DNA from: Hormiphora californensis
Lineage: Eukaryota > Animalia > Ctenophora
Direction of reading: 5' to 3'
DNA: 20,156 nucleotides
NCBI GenBank assembly: GCA_020137815.1
Contig: WFME01000025.1
Coordinates: forward strand, 1 to 20,156
Positions 3,153 to 20,156 of the stretch are shown one piece after another. Within the stretch, counting starts at the first letter, position 1, and every line of letters begins with the position of its first letter. Under the pieces are notes generated by a model. That model was given only the letters and a program-made list of their open reading frames with translations. It ran no database searches and was not told the DNA's origin. The position numbers were made by a program, and so were the translations under genes.

Positions 3153-3754
3153 GCAGGTTACGTGTAAAATACTATTTTCATTGCCATGCAATTTAACTTT
3201 GTCCATAAACTCTTGTCTTTTTTTCCGCCATCTAAATAATTTAGCTAATGGGGGTTTCAAAATGAGCTTGCTGTCTCCCTCTGCCATCGGGAAACGAGGC
3301 ATCATATAACGTGTTGGGCATAAAAAATGTCCCCCCTAGACTAGCATAGTTCCAGATATCGTAGAGCTCTAAAATTTTACACAGTTACTCTATGGGACAA
3401 ATAAATAAGTTCCACAAAATTTCAGACTTTTAGCTCAAAGTTCATTTTTTTGATCAGAATGAACATTGTTATTCATTCCAAAAACATGATTTTTCGGTCC
3501 AGAAGCCAAGCAATTATCTTTGGCTCTCGATTTTCTTTCAAATGCGACCAAGAAAAGCCCAAACGGATATCCACAAGGCAAACAGTGGTCATGTTTCTGA
3601 CTGTTAGTCAGGTCATGTGATCCCCACCGAATCGTGTAAGTTATTCTGAATTGCTAATCAAGATTAGTTGTGGAGAATCACGTATCACAGCCGCTAATGA
3701 GGGATGACGATGATGATTGGCCATGAGATCCGAAGCTCATTAACAAGTCACCTC

Positions 3755-4050
3755 GGTAAGTCTGAAGAACCTGTCCTTTCCTCTCACGAGCGCTCATGAG
3801 TGTATCATGAGTGTTTCAACGTCTCATGAGCGCTCATGAGACATTGAAACAGAGATGGGATGAGACATATGTCTCATGAGCGCTCATGAGCAACGTCTCA
3901 TGAGCACTCTTGATACGCTCATGACACACTCATGACACACTCATGATACACTCATGAGCGCTCATGATACACTCATGATACACTCATGACACACTCATGA
4001 TACACTCATGAGCGCTCATGAGAGGAACAGCCAGGTTCTTCCGACTTACC
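3755..4050. mobile_element. Merlin-like MITE with TCATGA-based internal repeats
   Basis: ~60-bp TIRs beginning GGTAAGTC; exact 8-bp TSD GTCACCTC (3747-3754, 4051-4058). GG termini plus an 8-bp TSD fit Merlin/IS1016. Confidence 0.75.
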
Positions 4051-4287
4051 GTCACCTCTTTACCAAAGTGCTCCCGAATCACATGTCCCTTCTTCGATAC
4101 ACATCCCTCATTAGCGACTGTGATACGTGATTCTTTCCCACTAAGCCTGATTAGCAATTCACGATTCGGTGGGGATCACATGACCTGACTAACAGTCAGA
4201 AACATGACCACTGTGTGCCTTGTGGTTGTCCGTTTTGGCTTTTCTTGGTCGCATTTGAAAGAATTTATTTATTTATTATCTCTGATA

Positions 4288-5852
4288 CAGGGTGTCCCAT
4301 ATATTCTGTGGGTCGGTTGGCGAGCTGTCACGCAAAAACGGTGATAGTAGTGTGAAAACAAACTACGGGAGTGTGCTGGATTAATTCCTTCCTAACTGAT
4401 GGCTTTGTTTTGAAATTAAATTTCAAAAGTTAATTTTTCATGAATGAACATTCCTGTCATTCATTCGTGAATTCTGAAATATTGTTTACCTTGAGTAAAA
4501 AACTTTTCTTTGGCTCGAAATTATCTTTCCAATGAGCACCATAAAAAACAAATTGAAGCACCGGGTCGCATTGCAGGTGAGAAAATGCAAATGCATGATT
4601 TTGGCCATTCCTGCGACTTTCAATCAGCTGTATCACCGCTAATTTTTGTTCAATCCTTTTAAAAGCTTTGGTGAACATCGGTGAAGATAAGACCTTTGCT
4701 CACAAGAAAAATCAAGGTCAAAACTCAAAGTTCATTTTTCATTTTTGGTAGTTCATTCCACTCATTCAGGAAAAAAACATCCCTAAAGTGACGAAAAGGT
4801 TTGGGTTTTGTTTGGCCCATGTCCTGAAACGACAGAGAGGTGTAAAAACGTGTTTCCGGGCTAGTTAGTGGGTGTCCATGTGATCATTTTGATATCTGAC
4901 ACCTTTGCTGAGCCATAATTAAGAGATTTTCTCAAATTCAAACATGGGATACGAGTATTCTGCGATTGGTACCGTGCACCAATAACAAGAGATCCCATAG
5001 CACCTCAAAAATTATGATTAGCTAAATGAAATGAGTTGATTTACGATTGAAAAGATTAAAACCAATGTAAAGTCGGACTAAACGAACATTTTCAAGCGTG
5101 AATCAACTCATTTCATTTAGCTAATCATAATTTTTGAGGTGCTATGGGATCTCTTGTTATTGGTGCACGATACCAATATCAGAATACTCGTATCCCATGT
5201 TTGAATTTGAGAAAATCTCTTAATTATGGCTCAGCAAAGGTGTCAGATATCAAAATGATCACATGGACACCCACTAACTAGCCCGGAAACACGTTTTTAC
5301 ACCTCTCTGTCGTTTCAGGACATGGGCCAAACAAAACCCAAACCTTTTCGTCACTTTAGGGATGTTTTTTCCTGAATGAGTGGAATGAACTACGAAAAAT
5401 GAAAAATGAACTTTGAGTTTTGACCTTGATTTTTCTTGTGAGCAAAGATCTTTGCTATCCAATGTTCACCCAAAGTTTCAAAAAGATTGAAGGTAAGGTA
5501 GCGGTGATACAGCCGATTGAAAGTAGCAAAAAGAGCCAAAATCATGCATGTTCATTTTCTCAACTGTCATGTGACCTGGTGCTTCAATTTGAGTTTTATG
5601 GTGCTCAATGGAAAGATAATTGCGAGCCAAAGAAAAGTTACTTACTCAAGGTAAACAATATTTCAGAATTCATGAATGAACGGCAGCAATGTTCATTCAT
5701 GAAAAATGAACTTTTGAAATTTAATTTTAAAACAAAGCCATCAGTTAGGAAGGAATTAATCCAGCACACTCCCGTAGTTTGTTTTCACACAACTATCACC
5801 GTTTTTGCGTGACAGCTCGCCAATCGACCCACAGAATATATGGGACACCCTG
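4288..5852. mobile_element. Foldback MITE (mariner-like CAGGGTGTCCC termini, TA TSD), almost entirely palindromic
   Basis: TA|CAGGGTGTCCCATATATTCTGTGGG ... CCCACAGAATATATGGGACACCCTG|TA; arms 4288-~5041 and ~5101-5852 around a spacer of about 60 bp or less; no transposase ORF. Confidence 0.9.
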
Positions 5853-6456
5853 TATACATTACAATATAACATGTAATATTGCACCTTCTTGCGTGCTAAA
5901 GAACTGGTACTCGGATAGTTCTGAACATTAAAAGATAGTCTGTTTATGATGGTTTTCAATGAAAAGGTAGTTAGATTAGGTTAAAATTGGCATGCTGCTG
6001 ATAGAATATTGAGTTAATGATAGTGATTAAATTAATAAGATAAAATAGTGTAGATAAGTTAATGCTGTTAAGATTTAAAACAAGAATTATTTGCATTATG
6101 TATCCATAATGCCACGTTTCCCTGCCCTCTTCGATTTGCCATTCAACTCGCCATTAAGCTGTCCGCATTCCGCAAAATGGGGATTTGTGTTTTTCGAACT
6201 TTTAAAAAACGCAAAACATTTTCAATTTCTCAATTTTCCCCAAAAACGCGCGGCCGATATAAAACAAATTTTGCCGCGCGTTACAGTTTATAGCCGCGCA
6301 CACCTCATAAATTTTCAATAGTTTGTGGGCGCGCATGTTACTCCGCAAACTTCAAATCGCGCGCGCCGCACGGTTGCCCCTCGCAACGAAAGTGTGACCA
6401 AAAAATGTCCCTCTACCGATTAGTTAGTATACCAAAATGTCGTTTTCGAATTCTAA

Positions 6457-6525
6457 CCCTGCTATGCCTTTTTACAAAGTAAAAAGGCATCCGGGTGGAT
6501 GCCTTCGGCATCCACCCGGGCAGGG
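6457..6525. other. T-shaped double hairpin (three-way junction) in the LINE 3' UTR region
   Basis: Stem CCCTGC/GCAGGG closes two adjacent perfect hairpins: 12 bp + AAA loop (6464-6490) and 13 bp + TTC loop (6491-6519). Confidence 0.8.
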
Positions 6526-6659
6526 AAATAAGTGTAGATAAGTTTTAATAAATAGTAGATAGAAATATAAAATATGCTGATTGAAGGGTAATTAGTAATA
6601 ATAAGTTAATTAATAGAATAAAATCAACAGTATAATTTAATAAGTATAAAAATATTGTA

Positions 6660-6786
6660 AAACAGTATACAGTGTTGAAACAGTATACAGTGTTGAAACA
6701 GTATACAGCGGTAAAACTGTGGTAGTAAAACAGTATTGTATAATGATCTAGTAAAAAACAGTATACAGTAGTAAAACAGTATACAA
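6660..6786. repeat. Degenerate ~18-bp minisatellite (AAACAGTATACAGTGTTG)
   Basis: AAACAGTATACA recurs at least five times. Confidence 0.8.
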
Positions 6787-6967
6787 TACATAATTTGATT
6801 TAAAGATCAGTAGGAATGAGATTTAATTGTAGTAGAAAACATAAAATAGAAATCACGTAAAATAAAATGTAGTAAAATAATTATATTAAACTAGTATTTA
6901 AGTTCTACTAGTCAATGTAATATTGTAATTCGGCCTTCGGCCAAAAAGCGCCGGGCCCATCGCTCAT

Positions 6968-9218
<2,251 letters not shown>

Positions 9219-9226
9219 TCTCTCTC

Positions 9227-9260
<34 letters not shown>

Positions 9261-9608
9261 ATTTTTTACTCTATATGGGGATCTCATCACGCACAGTGGA
9301 CTACTGGGTGAAATGTGGGATCTGATACTCACTGGGATGATCTGATCCTCAGTGGGGTGATCTGATCATGGGTGGGGTGATCTGATCCTCAGTGGGGTGA
9401 TCTAATCATGCATGTTGGGTGATGTGATCTGATCTTGATGACGACGATTTAGGGACCACCAAACATGCATGGGGGGATCAAGTTTCACCCCTTTTCGCAT
9501 TATATACTTAGTAAGATAGAGGGAGATAATCTTTAATTAAGAAAGGAGATTATCATCGAAAATACAGCTATCTAATGTTAGCTTCACTAGGTTACGGAAT
9601 TTACTCTT

Positions 9609-12600
9609 TTATATGTTACTATTACAGTTAAAAATCAGAGGAATATGAAAGTTAGATTCAAATGCAGAAATGCCAAGCAGTTGCTCCCGAGTTGAGGTTA
9701 CTACTCCCATAGAGGTGCACTTAAATAGTTTGTGGTATGGTGAATCAGGCTGGATCCCACACTCTAAGCAGTATGGAATTGCTGTGGTGGTTCCGATCGC
9801 CCCGTGGGATCTCATGTAGCTATAGGCGAAGTCAACTGGGAAAAACATATTAAACCTGTCAAGTGCCTTGTACAGAGAGGACCAGAATGTAGTAGTTACG
9901 ACAATTTGCTCTGTCAAGTGCTTCTGTACAGAGGGTTTCATGATCACGTATGTATCGATCATTTCCATCGCACAATTCCTCAACGTCTGTGTCCTGTCGC
10001 AGAATACCATGTATTGTTGTTTTCACACTGTCGTCCCACAGTTTACAGCCATAACGGTCCATGGTTTCTTTTGAGTATGAGAAGTCACTTGGGTCCATTT
10101 CAGTAAAGCTGCAGTTCCTTATGAAGGACCTCGAGTTATTCCCCTCCTCTAACGCTTTCCATTCTAGGTATCTCTTGGTTGCAGTTATGTGAGAGAAGAA
10201 GTAGTGATTCGGTTCGGCCTCGATCTGTAGTATCTTTGCTGTCACCGAGTCTGCCGCAGTTAGCCCCTTTAATATGAATTTCGTAGTCAGGGTATCGAGA
10301 GTGACTTCCATAGGTGGTATGGCAGTAAGCAGGTCAGACATTGCCTTCGAAATATGTACTTGACTGCCCAGGATCTTCAGTTTCGCTTTTGCTAACAGAT
10401 CCTTGAAGCTTCCTAGTCGATCACTGAGCGGGAGCCATAGTGGTGCGGCATACAAGAGTTTAGTTTGTACCACTGTTTTGAACAAAAGCGATAATGCGAC
10501 ACTGTTCATACCTTCTGTTCGTGTTGTCCCTGAAGATAGCTTATGCCAGGCAAACCAGCACTTTGATAGCACGAAGGAGGTGTGTCGTTTGAAATCTAAT
10601 TTCTCGTCGACATAAACTCCTAATACTTTGCTTGCACCTGTGTAAGATATCTGTGTATTGCCCAGGAACATCTGTTTCGGCGGCGGTGTAGGTGATGAAT
10701 CCACAGTTCTCGGTCTGATGACGATGATTTCCGTTTTGTCTCGGTCACAGTTTACAACCAGACGCCACTTTCGACACCAATCTCTTATGTAGTCCAAGAT
10801 GGTCTGCATACTTTCCTCGCACTCAGACTGGTCTCCCACAGTTATTACTGTGCCATCATCCGCAAATTTAAAAGCTTCAGAACTACCACGGATTGTCTCC
10901 GGTAAGTTTCTAGTTGACAGGAAATCAGATACATAGATGATGAAGAGAAGTGGCGATAGAATAGCTCCTTGTGGCAGACCAATCAAACCACAACTTCTGA
11001 ATCTACCAAGGTTACCATTTATCCTCAAAATAACCTTTCTGTGAGAAAGCATCGCATGAAGAAGCCGTAATATCTTACCACGAATGCCCATCGTTTGTAG
11101 TTTATGTATCAAACATGGAACAGGTACCGAATCGAAGGCCTTCTCGAAATCAATAAACAGGATATAGGCTGTAGCTTTTCGACGTTTGTTCTCGTGGAGT
11201 GTCGACAAGAGTTTGAAGAGATATCTCGTGGTATTCCTGACGGGAAGGAATCCCTCCTGTTCTTCGTCTAAGGTTCCCTCCTCATCAAAATAGTTCCTCA
11301 TCCGCTTATCCAAAACTCTTTCCAAGAGTTTCCCAATGTAGCTGCCAATTGTGATGGGCCTGTAGGCTCCGGGTGAGAGGTAAGACTTTTTACCGGCTTT
11401 CTTGATGAATGAGACTATTCCGGTATCCCAGGGCCATACTGATGTTGTGAGACAGCAGCTGAATAATCTCGAGAGGTACATAACTGCAATGTCTCCAAGG
11501 TGTTTGAGAACAATAGGGTGGATCCCTAGTCCGTCAGTTGATTTTCCACTGCTTTTCTGTGCCTTAATAGCCCGTGTGACTTCCTCCACTGAAACTTCCT
11601 TGTTTAGTTCCTCAATTTCCTCATCCTCTGGAGTTGTATCCTCTTCCAAAATATCTTCGACTCGCTCACAAATGTTCCTGTAGTGAGCTTCATCAAAGTT
11701 CTGGTTCCTCAAATGCTTTCCGCCAAAGAAGGTGTCGAATAGTATATCCTCTTTCTCAGCTTTACCGTGAATCAAAGTATTGCCATCCTGTAAGCAGCTT
11801 ATAAAATTTTCTTCAGGCATAAGGAACATATGCCGATATCTTTTCCAGAATAGCATAGACTCTGATACATTTAGTCCACTAAGGCGATCATGAATCCACT
11901 GGTTTTTACTCCTTATCAGGCACTCTTTGAACTGTTCTCGGGTAGTGTCTCGGGTAAGCTTATTGGATATCGTTCTCCTGAATTTATACTGTCTTTGTGC
12001 TGCTCGAAGTTCTTCTGACAGTTCCGTTAGTGCTTGAGACCAATAAGGTTTCGAAAATCTGCATACCGTTTTTGTGGGTATAAATAACTCAGTTGCTTCT
12101 TTAATTATATCCAGTAGGTTGCTAAACATCTCATTTGCGTTCTGCTCCTCGTTAAGACCCAATTCCATGAGCCGAGCGTCAATGAACTGAGTCCAATGCT
12201 CCCAATCTGCCTGTCTGTAGTCAGGAACACACTTTCTTGACGTGCTATTAGAGGTTATTCCAAGGTATGTGATAACTGGAATGTGACCACGGTCTGGAGC
12301 TCCAGTAAAGAGACAGTAACTACCATCCTCATCCGTCCAGGGTCCATCAAGAGCAAATCCATCGTTACCAAAGCGGAGGCATAAATCTATAACGCTTCCA
12401 CCCTGTGTACAAAGGAAAGTATTACTTCTGGGTGACATGATATCTGCACGTTGCCTTTCACAGAAATCCTCGAGAGTTCGTCCTTTATCATTTGTGATCC
12501 TATCTCCCCACGATAATCCTCTAGCATTGAAATCACCTAGAACATATAATGCCCCGATCTTGTTCCCATTGCAGTATCTCCATGCATTCTGGAGAGTGTC

Positions 12601-12924
12601 AAGAAGGTCCGAAATGTCCTCAGTAGGGCTGCAGTATACCGATGCAAACATCGCAGGTGCCAAGGAAACTGTCACAACTGCAAACACTGCTTCAACATTG
12701 GGGGACTCCAAACAACTTAGCGAGGTATTTACCGATAAGGTCACACCGTAGCTGTTAGATAGTCCGTATGTAATCATATCTTGAAACGTATTGTCAGGTG
12801 GAATATATCGTCCAGTTTCCTGGAGGGCCAGAACCGAAATGTTCCTCTCCGAGACGTATCGGTCCAATGCTATAATAGATTGTTGAGAGAGTCCGCTCAC
12901 GTTTAGTTGACATAGGCTAGCCAT
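9609..12924 (-). CDS. LINE ORF2: AP endonuclease + reverse transcriptase + C-terminal CCHC finger (one frameshift at ~9960-10010)
   Basis: APE motifs QLNVSG, LQET, GDFNA, SVIDL, GHIPV; RT motifs YRPIT, QEGF, FIDFEKAFDSV, GLPQGAILSP, FADD, KVLGV. The overlapping frame 9609-10010 supplies CLECGIQPDSPYHKLFKC. No RNase H is recognisable. Confidence 0.92.
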
Positions 12925-14521
12925 AGTTCACATTGACACGGGATAGATATTCAGGGCAGGTTTCTAGACATGGCAGAGTGATCTCCTTTCGTTTTACAGT
13001 TTGGACAACAGAGGTGGTTCCGGTTTGTTTTTGCAGGACAATCTTCAAGTTGGTGATTCTCATCAGAGGAGCTGCAATGAGGGCATCTCTGTTTCGATCT
13101 ACACCATTGCTCCATATGCCCGAAGCGCCAACACTTATGACACTGCGGTAGATTTCTCCGGGGTTTAGGAGTGTATTGCCTGATTCTGAAGCAGCGATTA
13201 TCGATAGTGAAAGTTTTGCCGATATTAGCATCTCTCTCCTCCTCTGTGTTGAATATCAGGAGAAGGCTTTGTCTAGGTTTTCCGTTGAATCCTTTGAATC
13301 GGTGGATCGAAGTCGGAGCTTTATCTGCTAGCTGATTTTTACAAGCTTCCATGAAATTATCTTCGGTATACTCAATATCAGCATAATCAACAGCTGCTTT
13401 ACATCCTTCCGGTGTTAGTGTCTCCTGGAGCAGTTTGCCTTGGTGGGGTGATCGGTATCTCCAAAGAATGTTGGTTCCCAGTCCCTCACCACCCTTAGTG
13501 CGTCATTTGGAGTAGCAACCTCAATCAAAAGTGTACAACGCATGGTAGATTTACATTGAATAACTTCTAAACATGGATAATATGAGTTAAAGTGCTTCAT
13601 GGTTTTAATCGACGTGCTAAGGAACTTTTGATAATCAACGATGCCTGTCACAGATATTGTTTTATTTGGATCACACAAAGATTTTGACACAGAAGGTTCA
13701 TTGGAAACATTAGGTTTCATGGATTTAACGGTTTGATTCTCTGTCTCTTCTGGGGTGTGTCCAGTCAACACTTCTCGGTACCCAGTCACTCCCTTTTCTT
13801 TCTCACTCTCCTTACCTCCCTCTCCTCCCCCAAGCAAGTATTTCAATTGTTCGTTTTTCGCGGCTAACAATTCCCTTTGCAGAGTCCTTACTTCATCTTT
13901 CGAAGATTCCAATTCCCGTTTCAGTTTTTTAACATAGTCCATACTCATCAAGTCTGCTATCGCTGGGACCATTTTGTAGGCCGTTTCCAGAATAAAAGTC
14001 GTTGTATCACAGACGTCCTTCTTGTTACCCATATCCTTCTCTGTTGGGGGTTGGACGTGTTTTCCCCGTTGAAGTTGGTCGTATAAATCTCGAGATGAAT
14101 GGATTTTCGGAGGTAATAAAGCCCCTAGTAAGTCGATCAATCCGTTAAAAACGGTGTTGGCAGGGTCCTCTTCGGATTCTGTGTCCGATTGTTCCGCAGG
14201 GATTGTTCCGCAGGGGACGCTCCCTGATATCAGGGCACGGCGCGTTCCTGCATGCCCGCCGCCCGGCCATCATGTGCAGATGGTTCTGTGGGAACCATGT
14301 GACATTGCTGCGCGTCACGTAGATTGAATGGAAAGTGGAGCTAACGCGCACGTCAGCACTCACTTGCTTGCCGACCTTGGGAACTGCCGACCTTGGGAAC
14401 TGATGCCTGGGAATCTCTAACTGGTGCCTTCTGGTGTCTTCTCCCGAGTATTATCCAGACATTCCTCTGGAACATCTTTATCTGAGACATGCTCCTCTTC
14501 TTGTCCTCCACTGGTCGCCAT
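12917..14521 (-). CDS. LINE ORF1, gag-like nucleic-acid-binding protein (coiled coil + three zinc knuckles), frameshifted in this sequence
   Basis: Fragments 13415-14140 (coiled coil) and 12951-13352 (CHKCWRFGHMEQWC, CPHC...H....C, CPNC....H); the C-terminus CPEYLSRVNVNYG* is in the frame ending 12917. The ATG at 14521 (MATSGGQEEE...) is an inferred start; the reading frame clearly extends to at least ~14220. Confidence 0.8.
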
Positions 14522-14563
14522 ATCGTTTCGTTCTGCCCTTTGGGGCGGTTACATCACTCCATT

Positions 14564-14604
14564 CTCAAATTAATTTGTTTAAAGTAGTGTTGAAAAGTTT
14601 GAAA
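14564..14604 (-). other. Spliced-leader-like exon sequence forming the 5' end of the LINE
   Basis: TTTCAAACTTTTCAACACTACTTTAAACAAATTAATTTGAG matches my recollection of the ctenophore (Pleurobrachia) SL exon. It is followed by AATGG, not a GT donor, so it is not an SL RNA gene. Confidence 0.75.
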
Positions 14605-14830
14605 GAAAATCGAAAGTCAAATGAAATTGTTTAACATTTGGACCAAATAGTCAAGTTTTTCGGAATAAATGACAATGTTCATTCCGATAAAAAAATGAAC
14701 TTTGAGCTAAAAGTCTGAAATTTTGTGGAACCTATTTATTTGTCCCATAGAATAACTGTGTAAAATTTTAGAGCTCTACGATATCTGGAACTATGCTAGT
14801 CTAGGGGGGACATTTTTTTTGCCCAACACG

Positions 14831-15835
14831 TTAGTATCCAAGAGTATCCAAGAGAAGTTTAAATTTAGGTAGTAGAGCATGATTTGATCGGTTTTGAGAG
14901 TAGCGATATTTTAAAATGATGGCACCGACCATGAGATTAGTGACAACACTTGCTATCAGGATAAAGACAATTACATAGGCCTTTTTGATTCTACAGCTCC
15001 TTGTATCCACGGGTCCTGTTATGAAGAAATGGGCAATCTTCACACCTTTCCGAAGCCCATATTGGTTTTGTTGACAAGCCCTTCGGGTGTAAAACATGAT
15101 TTGACGGTCGACTCCTCATTCTCTGAGATCATGTGCTAATGTTGCATTGACTGAATGAACTTCACGGCATCATGGATACTCTAACAAACGTTTACAAAGT
15201 CTAACATTCCTGTTTTCGTTTCTATGGCAAACTTCACAGGTGCTCCATCCTCCATTATCAAACTCTACATCCTTCTGCTCCATGACAACCCACGATATTC
15301 TGCTCCGTGATCATGGAAGAACCTGAGGTATTAATACTCAGGATGAAGCGTGGAAATGTCCGACTTGTGGGAGAGGTTGTGTTGTATGGATGTTACGGTA
15401 ATGGGCATGTCCAGATACCCACGTGGCTTGTGGACAATGATCTAATTGTGAGGTTAGAAACCGTCCCAGTTTGGTCGAGTTGTCTGAAAAGAAAAACATT
15501 TTTCACCAGTTTGCCTTTTAGAGATGCAAAACTAGATATGAAATGTAGGATTTTATTATGGCTACAAGTTGTACCTGAAACCTTAGAACACGCGAACGCG
15601 AAGGTCGAGTTGTTATAAGTGCACAATTATGATCCGAAACCACAGGTCGAGGCAGATTTCTTGTACTTTGTGCACGATCCTGTGAGTGCCACTAAGTGTA
15701 ACTACCTCACGAGCCTGCGGATTGATGTAGTTTTACTTTTTGACCGAGCCTGCGAGGTCTAAAGTGAAAGATCTGGGACATTATGGTTGACGTCAGGTAC
15801 AACGAAAATAAAAAAAAACACAACCAAAAGGCCAT
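14831..15835 (-). pseudogene. Disrupted, apparently intronless type I membrane protein (signal peptide, Ig-like segment, WSTCEVC Cys motif, TM helix); loosely FAM187-like; pseudogene or sequencing errors
   Basis: MAFWLCFFLFSLYLTSTIMSQ leader; SNLTIRSLSTSHVGIWTC Ig E-F strand motif; GGWSTCEVCHRNENRNVRLCK; TM AYVIVFILIASVVTNLMVGAIIL followed by KYR; several stops and frameshifts between the pieces. Confidence 0.5.
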
Positions 15836-16436: not shown

Positions 16437-17484
16437 CGCCGGGCTTACAGCAGTGATCCTAAAGAATTATATTATATCCCAAAATTTTACAATTTATAAA
16501 TTGTATAATCCCCTTTTTTTTGGAAACTTTAATTAAAGTTTATGACTTACTCGGTGTGTTTTACCTGGGTAGATTCTTCCAGAACGATCATTTGAACCCA
16601 CAATCCTTCTTCCGGTGTAGTCCAACAGCCTCTGGAAAGGAGGCACCCTCAGCCTGACCCCATCGTTATCCCTCCCCAGCCGCCACAAACAAACCCCAAC
16701 TCAACCTCCCCTGGATCACCACTCGGGGCGCAGTGTCATTCTCATCACACAACCCCACGGACTTCTATCCTATCTACTACGGGTGCCTGGGCTTGCCACT
16801 GCAGCCCACAAGGGACTATCGCAAAAGCGATCATCGCCGGCACTAGGAGAATAGCCCCCCCTTCCCTCCCCACCATAGGAACTGCCCACAGAGGCACAGG
16901 TTCGCATATAGGTGTGCTTCGGTTTCGGGAGCTCAACTCCTTCGAGATTCTTTATCTTGATTCTTCTTTCTGTGATTCTTGGCTTCGTGCTTCTATCCCC
17001 CATCCATCCCCCTTCGACAAGAGGTGGGGGGGAGTCTCTTTCTATTCTTGAGCTTGTCTCGATTAGCTTGATAGTTAACGCGGTGTTGTTTATTATCGTT
17101 TTAACATAGGTTAAGTTGTACAAGGTTTTGCCTCAAATTTTTTAGGAATTAGGTCACACCCGCAAATTAGGTTTTTGGGTTTTCATTATTTATAGTTTAA
17201 TTATAGTAACTTGGAATTGGTCTGTCATATGGTATATGACAAAGAAGATTTCTAAACAATTATAAGTGGCAGGACGGTAAACACAATAAATACTCACATT
17301 TGTGATGTACCCCTACCACCGATAAGCTAACTTAAAGCGAATTAGACACAAGGATGTCTCTATAGTACCTGTTTTCAGAATCCTCACTTTGGGACGGGTG
17401 AGGCGGGGGAGGGTGGGTGGGGAGGAGTGGTGGGGTGGGGGGGGGTGGGCGGGGGACGTGGTGGGTGGAGGCAAATAATCGAGA

Positions 17485-20156
17485 TTAATGGTGACTATGG
17501 TTACATATATGATTCGTTTCGGTTTAGTGCTGGAATATACCATGTTTCGCTGGGAAAACCCAAGATCGCGCTTCGTTTGAAACGAGATCGGAGAGCTGTG
17601 CAAAAATAGATAAGTCTGCCACAACTGAGTTAGGAATGAAAATGGATTTTTTTAATTAGCACATGCGTGACTCTAGATATCGCGGTAGTTGAGGGGAGAG
17701 AGAGAGATTGTTTTCTCTGTTAAAAAAAAAAACGATGAGAGAAAGAAGCGTTTAAAAAAAAAAACTGAGGGGGGGTGGGGGATTGAGAGTTGTGTTGTAC
17801 ATTTTTCTTCTCTTTTCTTCTTTTTTTCTTCTTCCTGGTCCCACTTTCTCGTTTTGATATCTCTCTCTGCATACGCTCGTCATCTCTCTCTTTCTTTCCC
17901 ACTCCGCTATTCCCCCCAACCCTTTATCGTTCTCTCTTTCTTCTCTCTTGGCGGGAGAGAGAGAGGGAGACCGGAGAAGGAATCTGTAGGGTCGGGAGAG
18001 ATTAAAAAAATGTGATACTATGTTTTACTATATATTGAAATGTGAACTATGGTTTACACATATTAATTTTCTTTTCGGTTTAATAGAGTTTATTATCCTT
18101 CTCTTTACTATATTCTTCTCGCCCTCTTGCCAGTGGCGCGTATTGTCAGATACCGGGAAGTTCTCCCAGGCGCGCCGCTGGGAGAAGGGTAGCTTATTTT
18201 TAATATGCTAGCCGCCACTTGGTCGGATAAAAAAAAAAACTGGTTTCAATCACGACGACGCATCCCGAGGCGTAGCCGCGGGAGAGGCGGAGGGTTTAAA
18301 CCTATAACGCGGTCCGTGGCAAGAGTTTATATTTTATATACCCTGCTTTAGAGTTGTTTGTTACAAGTATTACCCCTACAAGAGAGAATCACTAATCAAA
18401 ACAACACAAAGAGAACTGGAAACAGTCCAAAAACATCTCTCAATTTGAGTGTAGCACTGTTTTGTAACAGTTTATAGGAGAAGAGAGCAAGAATAACAAG
18501 ATATGGGGCATGGCCAGACATACACCCAGAGTAATTGAGATGTTAACCAAAAGGAAGCCGTCGCAAGAGAGTAATTGCCCACGGAATTGTTGTTTCTTTC
18601 TCCTCCCATTTAGTGTGTAACGCTTTCTTCCAAACAGTGTTTCCCTCTGTATTTCAGTAAAGACTGATCATTTGACACACACACTTTGATGTAACATAGG
18701 AGTAAAAATAATAACCTGCCAACCTCCAGTGGGGAATAATCTTGCGCTGGACTGGCTGGTTATCGAAAGCCGCGCTAGTGGGACTTCCTCTTTTTAAACA
18801 CTGCGCATTATTTAAGTTAGCAAGGGAGCAGGGTATATACCATGTTCGCTGGGAAACCCAAGATCGCTCTTTGAAAGGAAACGAATCGGAGAGCTGTTCA
18901 AAGGATAAGTCTTGCTGACAACTGAGTTGAAGTGAAAATGGATTTTTTTTAATTAGCCACAAGTGCGTGACTAGATATCGCGTAGTTGAGGAGAGAGAAG
19001 TATTGTTTTTTTCTCTGTAAAAAAAGATGAGAAAGCCTAACGAGGGGGGGGGGGGGTGCGCGTGTCTTTTCTGTCAGTAAACCGGAGCTTGGCGAGAGAG
19101 AACGAGGAGAGAGAAGAGCGAGAGAGCGTTAAAAAACTGGAAAAAAAAACAAAAGTTTCTCTCCTCTTGCGGGAGAGAGAGAGGGAAGACCGAAGCAGGA
19201 ATTGTAGTCGGGAGGAGATTAAATTGAACGATGGGTTACATAGAGATTAATGTGAACTATGGTTTCCTATTATGATTCGTTTCGGTTTAGGTAGAGTCGC
19301 CTGAATAACCATGTTCCGCTGGGAAAAACCCAAGTATCGCTCGTTTGAACCGAGATCGAGAGCGTGCAAAAAAGATATAAGTCTTGCGCACCCTGATTTA
19401 GGAAGTGAAAATGGATTTTTTTTTAATTAGCACAGTGCGTGACGAGATAAAATCGCGAGTTTGATGGGATAGAGAGATATTGTTTCTCTGGAAAAAAAGA
19501 TGATAAGAGCGTTAAACTGAGGGGGGGGGGGGGGGGGGGGGGTGTTGGTGGGTGGGGTGTTTGTTTTTTTTGGTTATATTTTTATTTTCTGCAATTCAAA
19601 AAGGTAGATTGGAGATAGAGAAGAGAGAGAGAGAGAGCGTTAAACTGGAAACAAAGTTTCTCTCTGGCGGGGGAGAGAGAGAGGGAGACCGAGAATGAAT
19701 TGAGTCCGGGAGATATTTAAATGTGAAACTATGGTTACAATAGGATTAAATATGTGCTATGGTTACATATTATTATTCGGTTTCGGTTAGGAGTCGCTGG
19801 ATATACCCAACCATGTTCTCGCGGGAAAACCCAAGATCGCCTCGTTTGTGAACGAGAATCGTAGAGCTGTGCAAAAGAGATAATCTTTTGCTGCACAACT
19901 GAGTTAGGAAGTGGAAAATGATTTTTTTTAATTACAGTGCGTGAACTGAGATATCCGCGTAGTTTTGAAGGGGAGAGAAGAGATTGTTTCTTCTTTTCTT
20001 CTCTCTGTAAAAAAATATAGAGAAAAAAGCGTTACAAAACTAGAGCGTTAAACAAAAACACAACTGAGAGTTCAAACCAATCAAAAACCTGAGGAAAACT
20101 AAAAAAAAAACTTTAAAACTTAAACTGAGGGGGGGGGGGGGGGGGGGTGAGAGGGT
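17485..20156 (+). repeat. Direct repeats of a ~500-bp unit (4 copies, the last three in tandem), heavily indel-degraded
   Basis: CCATGTT(T/C)CGCTGGGAAAACCCAAGATCGC...GAAAATGG..TTTTTTAATTA...poly-G...GCGGGAGAGAGAGAGGGAGACC recurs at ~17540, ~18840, ~19310 and ~19810 (the last copy is cut off by the window end after the poly-G). Confidence 0.85.

Follow-up and report, generated by a model that had tools for sequence, protein, structure and literature searches.

Spliced-leader sequence at the 5′ ends of a clade of ctenophore LINEs: a candidate route for restoring a retrotransposon 5′ end

Spliced leaders and retrotransposons in other hosts

Every LINE must restore its own 5′ end in each cycle, and the known means are an internal promoter or a self-cleaving ribozyme. 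Among elements associated with spliced leaders (SLs), those of the NeSL, CRE/SLACS and CZAR kind are retrotransposons that target SL genes. In NeSL and CRE/SLACS (PMC4640811), as in the ctenophore LINE described here, a non-LTR element stands directly behind a leader exon; those elements, however, use a restriction-like endonuclease and have the leader as their target, whereas the ctenophore LINE encodes an APE endonuclease and its leader moves with the element. The trypanosome L1Tc/ingi elements with Pr77 are likewise LINEs in a host that trans-splices its mRNAs, but by the available accounts an internal promoter and an HDV-like ribozyme let them do without trans-splicing. An Rfam scan gave no match above threshold in the window, by which is meant the whole 20,156-nucleotide stretch of Hormiphora californensis DNA analysed here, or in eight related loci.

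Elsewhere, transposon RNAs use host trans-splicing directly, as is also proposed below for the ctenophore LINE. An SL is found on about 30% of Hydra transposon Iso-Seq reads (PMC12220107), and in the Caenorhabditis elegans element Cer1 SL1 is present on the short spliced mRNA alone, the full-length RNA being reported as not trans-spliced (PMC3315495). Both cases are described in those sources at the level of RNA, whereas the ctenophore LINE is known from DNA. In the SL-relic retrogenes of dinoflagellates (PMC5585692, PMC3942190), a trans-spliced RNA was reverse-transcribed and left its leader in the genome. There, however, host genes are described as having been copied in trans, and their relics are often stacked, while in ctenophores the autonomous element itself is tagged. 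A close precedent concerns flatworms, where 597 discarded SL loci with partial leaders were tied to LTR and LINE elements, and where the same idea was voiced, namely that such loci may stem from integrated transcripts of trans-spliced retrotransposons (PMC12582326). In the available text of that paper the idea occupies one sentence, with no junctions, duplications or families. The ctenophore case adds a junction, a near-complete leader, several families, a candidate acceptor copy and another phylum, and thus provides junction-level evidence for a LINE 5′-end route that has so far been suggested just in passing. No report of SL-headed LINEs in ctenophores was found in the openly searchable literature, and a passage search of PMC7986045, PMC8557442, PMC4558846, PMC12460157 and PMC4233971 turned up nothing on them.

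Anatomy of the element and its leader

The window contains a decayed but full-length, two-ORF, APE-type LINE, spanning 14597 to 4264 on the minus strand and inserted in a palindromic MITE. Its features, from the 5′ side of the element onward, are as follows (where no strand is given, none was assigned).

14608 to 14833: portion of the host palindromic MITE that flanks the LINE on its 5′ side
14598 to 14607, minus strand: 10-bp target-site duplication, 5′ copy
14564 to 14604, minus strand: spliced-leader relic, bases 4–44 of the 44-nt ctenophore SL, its first 7 nt overlapping the target-site duplication
14522 to 14563, minus strand: 5′ UTR, 42 nt, with a core (about 14533–14562) common to sister families that also follow an SL
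12951 to 14521, minus strand: ORF1, broken (insert, and frameshift near 13417), with C-terminal Cys/His knuckles
14192 to 14428: 237-nt high-copy repeat, an in-frame insert in ORF1 that holds 4 early stops and is absent from the organism B contig
9538 to 12924, minus strand: ORF2, with APE endonuclease, reverse transcriptase and C-terminal CCHC motif, frameshifted near its 3′ end
4264 to 9537, minus strand: 3′ UTR, AT-rich and broken up by nested insertions, with inferred limits for the pieces
6905 to 9519: nested repeat, with a second copy near 1841–2246
7341 to 9182, plus strand: reverse transcriptase fragment of another LINE, inside the nested repeat
4288 to 5852: nested foldback DNA element, flanked by TA
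4254 to 4263, minus strand: 10-bp target-site duplication, 3′ copy
3307 to 4263: portion of the host palindromic MITE that flanks the LINE on its 3′ side

An earlier note on this DNA, made from the sequence alone, had described a full-length, APE-type element sitting in a MITE. The domain matches and the flanks, both of which belong to one MITE, bear out the type and the location; the element is indeed full-length, but it is decayed, with frameshifts and nested insertions. A domain search of ORF2 matched PF14529 at residues 93–183 and PF00078 at residues 508–763, with no RNase H match in ORF2 or in the relatives searched. P0001, an intact relative, stops about 60 residues past its own CCHC motif and has no domain match to a restriction-like endonuclease. 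The broken ORF1 resembles ORF1 in 10 of the 11 relatives tested, and four of eight relatives gave weak PHD or zinc-knuckle matches below the cut-off. The ATG at 14521, 42 nt downstream of the leader, is the ORF1 start, as the note had thought likely, because the four early in-frame stops all fall inside the 237-nt insert, which lacks a counterpart in a related contig. That insert is very deep in the organism A sequencing runs introduced below. The very short UTR that the note had remarked on is not a general trait: in relatives, 175–557 nt separate the leader end from the first ATG of a long ORF1. At 14553–14562 (minus strand), directly behind the leader and inside the UTR core common to sister families, lie two tiny upstream reading frames (ATG-GAG-TGA and ATG-TAA). 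The 3′ end has a (TAAA)n-type tail (about 4264–4279), and there are no LTRs. The nested repeat at 6905–9519 is presumably Helitron-like, judged by its end features, and the foldback element at 4288–5852 we take to be Tc1/mariner-like. Elsewhere in the window, 2829–2928 forms a perfect, spacer-free 100-nt palindrome, and a repeat that contains G-runs and measures about 500 nt is present in several diverged copies at 17478–20156.

A first search for a duplication near the end of ORF2 (9000–10000) found none, the true 3′ end being at 4264. The 10-mer at 14598–14607 occurs again at 4254–4263 and nowhere else on that strand, and the outer flanks, when joined, align across the insertion point with the opposite arm of the palindromic MITE. 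Together, the two copies and the rejoined flanks establish a true target-site duplication, as had been claimed. It had also been claimed that the leader lies directly inside this duplication, which is not quite the case: the first 7 retained leader bases are also the last 7 of the duplication, leaving 34 nt of leader inside it. The leader block belongs to the inserted DNA. Non-LTR insertions are known to show microhomology at their 5′ junctions (PMC2881922), and pairing through the 7-nt overlap is the likely reason why the first three bases of the leader are missing.

The leader itself is a 41-nt block at 14604–14564 (minus strand) with the 3′ end AAATTAATTTGAG. It is identical at 41 of 41 positions to bases 4–44 of the published H. 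californensis leader, a 44-nt sequence reported on 56% of long cDNA reads and at 718 genomic positions (PMC8527503). Such a match excludes chance and identifies the block as the ctenophore SL exon, as the earlier note had proposed. In keeping with an mRNA leader, the block is also found at positions 5–49 of a 355-nt contig from an RNA-type run (X14), in which the leader was the one part of the element covered. A leader identical to that of host mRNAs therefore heads a retroposed sequence, which is the mark of an SL-relic retrocopy. The note had allowed that the block might be part of an uninterrupted MITE consensus; its inner 34 bases, however, are not MITE sequence, and a MITE origin was rejected. 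Also rejected was the possibility that the window holds an SL RNA gene: neither a GT donor follows the leader exon nor, within the next 120 nt, an Sm-like site, in agreement with what had been noted. Just outside the junction, the MITE arm at 14618–14635 (minus strand) resembles the 3′ end of the leader at 15 of 18 bases; this stretch aligns without gaps to the other MITE arm, and the likeness is probably drift.

A leader exon at the head of a non-LTR element could in principle be target DNA, the element having inserted site-specifically behind the leader exon of an SL RNA gene in the manner of NeSL or CRE/SLACS/CZAR. Targeting of SL exons is known, and target-specific clades exist among APE-type elements as well (Tx1, R1; PMC4640811). 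At the window locus this account was rejected, as 34 bases of the leader lie inside the duplication, both flanks are one MITE rather than an SL RNA gene, and no SL intron follows the 3′ end. Moreover, the 5′ flanks of four leader-bearing relatives discussed below (L012, L013, L014 and L021) have no match to each other among the matches listed. Taken overall, SL-gene targeting is very improbable.

Leader junctions in sequencing runs and distant relatives

Public sequencing runs contain the same family and sister families. Six runs from one organism (A) contain 0.73–0.79 of the element's words and five from another (B) about 0.1. Seven runs were aligned to the window, and two of them, X1 and X10, gave no records at the junction, an outcome that filtering can produce. 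In run X2, a 166-nt contig spans the UTR and 28 leader bases with one difference. In run X7, from organism B, all four junction contigs pass from the UTR core into the leader, with 1–6 extra bases in between that differ among contigs. The 2170-nt contig of this run repeats the last 6 leader bases at the junction; it ends inside the leader, so this copy may be the same old insertion as that in the window. Three of the four junction-crossing records listed for run X6 carry the leader, one of them from a sister family and with 5 extra bases. The earlier note had conceded that, were this copy alone in having the leader, a one-off template switch would be the better explanation. Since leader–UTR junctions recur in a second organism, in other samples and in sister families, a single accident of this kind was rejected. 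The fourth X6 record is identical to the window over 14493–14565 and then continues into a degenerate TTAGGG-like repeat with no SL. The last bases of its flank, TTTAG, abut the junction exactly, in the position expected of a splice acceptor. This SL-less copy, represented by 28 flanking bases in one contig, could also be a 5′-truncated insertion that was joined at an AG by chance. Beyond the 3′ end of the leader, contigs with loose ends numbered 34 in X2, 20 in X3 and 34 in X7; they agree only at about 0.4, and what comes after genomic leader copies is therefore highly varied, a diversity that hints at numerous relics and not at uniform SL genes.

The family also has more distant relatives. 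Among 134 protein matches to ORF2, 83 close ones form a well separated group, the nearest named relatives being from Pleurobrachia and Mnemiopsis and the others unnamed or hypothetical proteins. An alignment of 35 ORF2 relatives, used to search metagenome contigs, retrieved 63 loci. Of these, 28 were placed in one clade with the named ctenophore proteins and the window (0.947 support in the reverse transcriptase tree), 33 form a sister group in the trees and 2 stand apart; the 28 include L011, L019, L020, L040 and L050, which are in neither tree and were placed by DNA similarity, weakly so for L019 and L020. Clade relatives were absent from viral and prokaryote contigs in the search with the clade alignment, the leader pattern had no match in viral contigs, and searches of solved structures and the Atlas returned just generic LINE matches.

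In the clade, 20 of the 28 loci have their first base within the element and hence lie outside leader scoring; six have a 5′ flank. Four of these six (L012, L013, L014 and L021) carry, just upstream of the UTR, a block of 42–48 nt that ends in TTGAG and is free of G for 30 nt or more, even though their endonuclease regions are 28–42% identical to each other. One further contig begins inside such a block, and L052 and L054 start 17 nt and 13 nt, respectively, before a TTGAG. Across the six leader-bearing elements, identity in the endonuclease region is 28–43%; L012 and L052, at 43% identity there, have exactly the same 17 nt at the leader end. A search of 589,182 positions with the window leader gave scores of 54 for L014 and 38 for L013, against 34 for the best of 20 shuffles; L012 and L021 did not stand out. 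Pairwise matches to the window leader gave a p value of 0.001 for L014 and for L013, a weak 0.018 for L021 and 0.49 for L012, and the match of L012 to L013 gave 0.007. We infer that these blocks are the SLs of their own hosts. A pattern of 30 G-free bases followed by TTGAG, defined after these matches had been seen, occurs four times on the sense strand in the clade, each time before ORF1, against a mean of 0.5 and a maximum of 3 in 200 shuffles. It has three antisense occurrences in the clade (one 3′ UTR site) and is absent from all 33 sister-clade loci.

As to whether each full-length copy starts with an SL, which the earlier note had asked, the four flanked relatives above do have a leader-like block, but L007 and L009, which belong to one family, begin at a 12-nt stretch ending in TTGAG with no long leader. 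A further member of that family, L008, adjoins an RPL21 gene whose close relatives cluster with those of Mnemiopsis, Bolinopsis and Pleurobrachia. Given this ctenophore-type neighbor, the L007 family is either a ctenophore counter-example or a doubly truncated case. The RPL21 reading frame, at L008:2841-3323, is intronless and begins about 500 nt past the 3′ end of the LINE.

Several features of individual relatives deserve description. An 11-nt word that borders the leader of L014 on its outer side is present again after the tail of the 96.9% identical L015, a result reached by 6 of 2000 shuffles; the repeated word is likely a second duplication enclosing the leader. L013:1-20 consists of short tandem repeats of the leader's first bases before the leader-like block, possibly a product of slippage at the RNA's 5′ end. 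A hairpin in the 5′ UTR (L014:485-540, L018:74-130, L048:20-75 and L054:52-108) is common to otherwise distant families and keeps the same loop, with stem changes that are paired; three of these four loci were scanned against Rfam without a match. In the sister clade, an ATGGCG/AGATGGC-type motif, a pattern chosen after being seen, occurs in the first 700 nt of 12 of the 33 loci (L022–L025, L029, L033–L035, L039, L041, L043 and L055) and in the first 1500 nt of none of the 28 clade loci. We take it to resemble YY1-type internal promoter motifs.

At L014:384-389, a donor-like GTATGT directly follows the leader-like block, with no Sm-like site in 120 nt. It may be chance or the captured start of an SL gene, and falls outside the account preferred here. 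The latter possibility would suit a history in which one capture of the leader, or a few, made it an inherited part of the element that is transcribed with it, perhaps as a piece of its promoter, with no need for trans-splicing in each round. A promoter role for relics has been proposed in dinoflagellates by Song et al. (PMC5585692), and the element is known here from DNA. Yet the window's leader is identical at all 41 positions to a host-type SL although the copy around it has decayed, families just 28–43% alike carry leaders, two of them with the same 17-nt end, and the SL-less copy breaks exactly at the leader's AG. Such inheritance of a captured leader is therefore unlikely. Alternatively, the chimera might form in cDNA, the reverse transcriptase jumping from the 5′ end of the LINE RNA to SL RNA or to an SL-capped mRNA. 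Template jumps are part of non-LTR integration (PMC2881922), and both the 1–6-nt spacers and the GTATGT of L014 could be their scars; such products, however, should carry intron or mRNA sequence, whereas the junctions in X2, X6 and X7 lie at the 3′ end of the leader or no more than 6 nt away from it, making template jumping a distinctly unlikely source.

A probable trans-spliced intermediate and its meaning

Judged from sequence, SL-headed LINEs are a clade-level phenomenon and not a one-off. The preferred explanation, considered likely, is that LINEs of this ctenophore clade usually transpose through an SL trans-spliced RNA; the DNA products are observed and the RNA steps reconstructed from them. 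A source copy would be transcribed from upstream, and the spliceosome would attach the SL at an AG immediately upstream of the 5′ UTR. ORF2 would then copy the capped RNA to its end by target-primed reverse transcription, whereupon the end of the cDNA would pair with the target through the 7 shared bases and the 3 unpaired bases would be lost. Against this reading stand the starts of L007 and L009, which lack a long leader, and the block of L012, no closer to the window's leader than shuffles are.

Either the flanking DNA of a master copy or the GAG of the relic itself would supply the acceptor AG. In the latter version, which the earlier note had favored, the terminal AG of the relic would serve as acceptor, such that any read-through transcript regains an exact, capped 5′ end. 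The sole AG of the retained relic does stand at its end. GAG, however, is a rare splice acceptor in general, which counts against this version, though the rule may not hold for ctenophores. Five of five copies have a single relic, with no second full relic upstream of the leader (flanks of 13–500 nt), unlike the stacked relics of dinoflagellates (PMC5585692). This singleness fits both sources of the acceptor, as an SL-less copy with TTTAG at its junction would equally yield single relics. The sister junctions with 1–6 extra bases, one of which repeats the leader's last 6 bases, indicate that the junction is not always restored exactly. Self-regeneration through the relic thus remains a tentative sub-model of the preferred reading. 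Source copies with a flank-supplied acceptor are the more likely origin, and the SL-less TTTAG copy favors such master copies.

The SL-headed habit may be a passive outcome of a host that trans-splices most of its mRNAs. A bolder proposal, possible though rather doubtful, is that the clade has no promoter or 5′-end device of its own and depends on the SL, that acceptors are supplied by the TTAGGG-like repeats of master copies or by the relic, and that many of the hundreds of leader copies so far unexplained in ctenophore genomes mark the heads of these LINEs or of RNAs that the LINEs copied.

If true, borrowing of the host SL would be a third way to restore the 5′ end of a LINE, and the SL-headed LINEs span a deep clade in an early-branching animal phylum. 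The finding also offers an account of the 718 leader copies in Hormiphora and the 491 in Mnemiopsis, which are given without a source where they are reported (PMC8527503), and cautions that genomic leader copies are not all SL genes. Finally, the SL tag marks full-length insertions and may allow them to be dated against the turnover of the SL itself.
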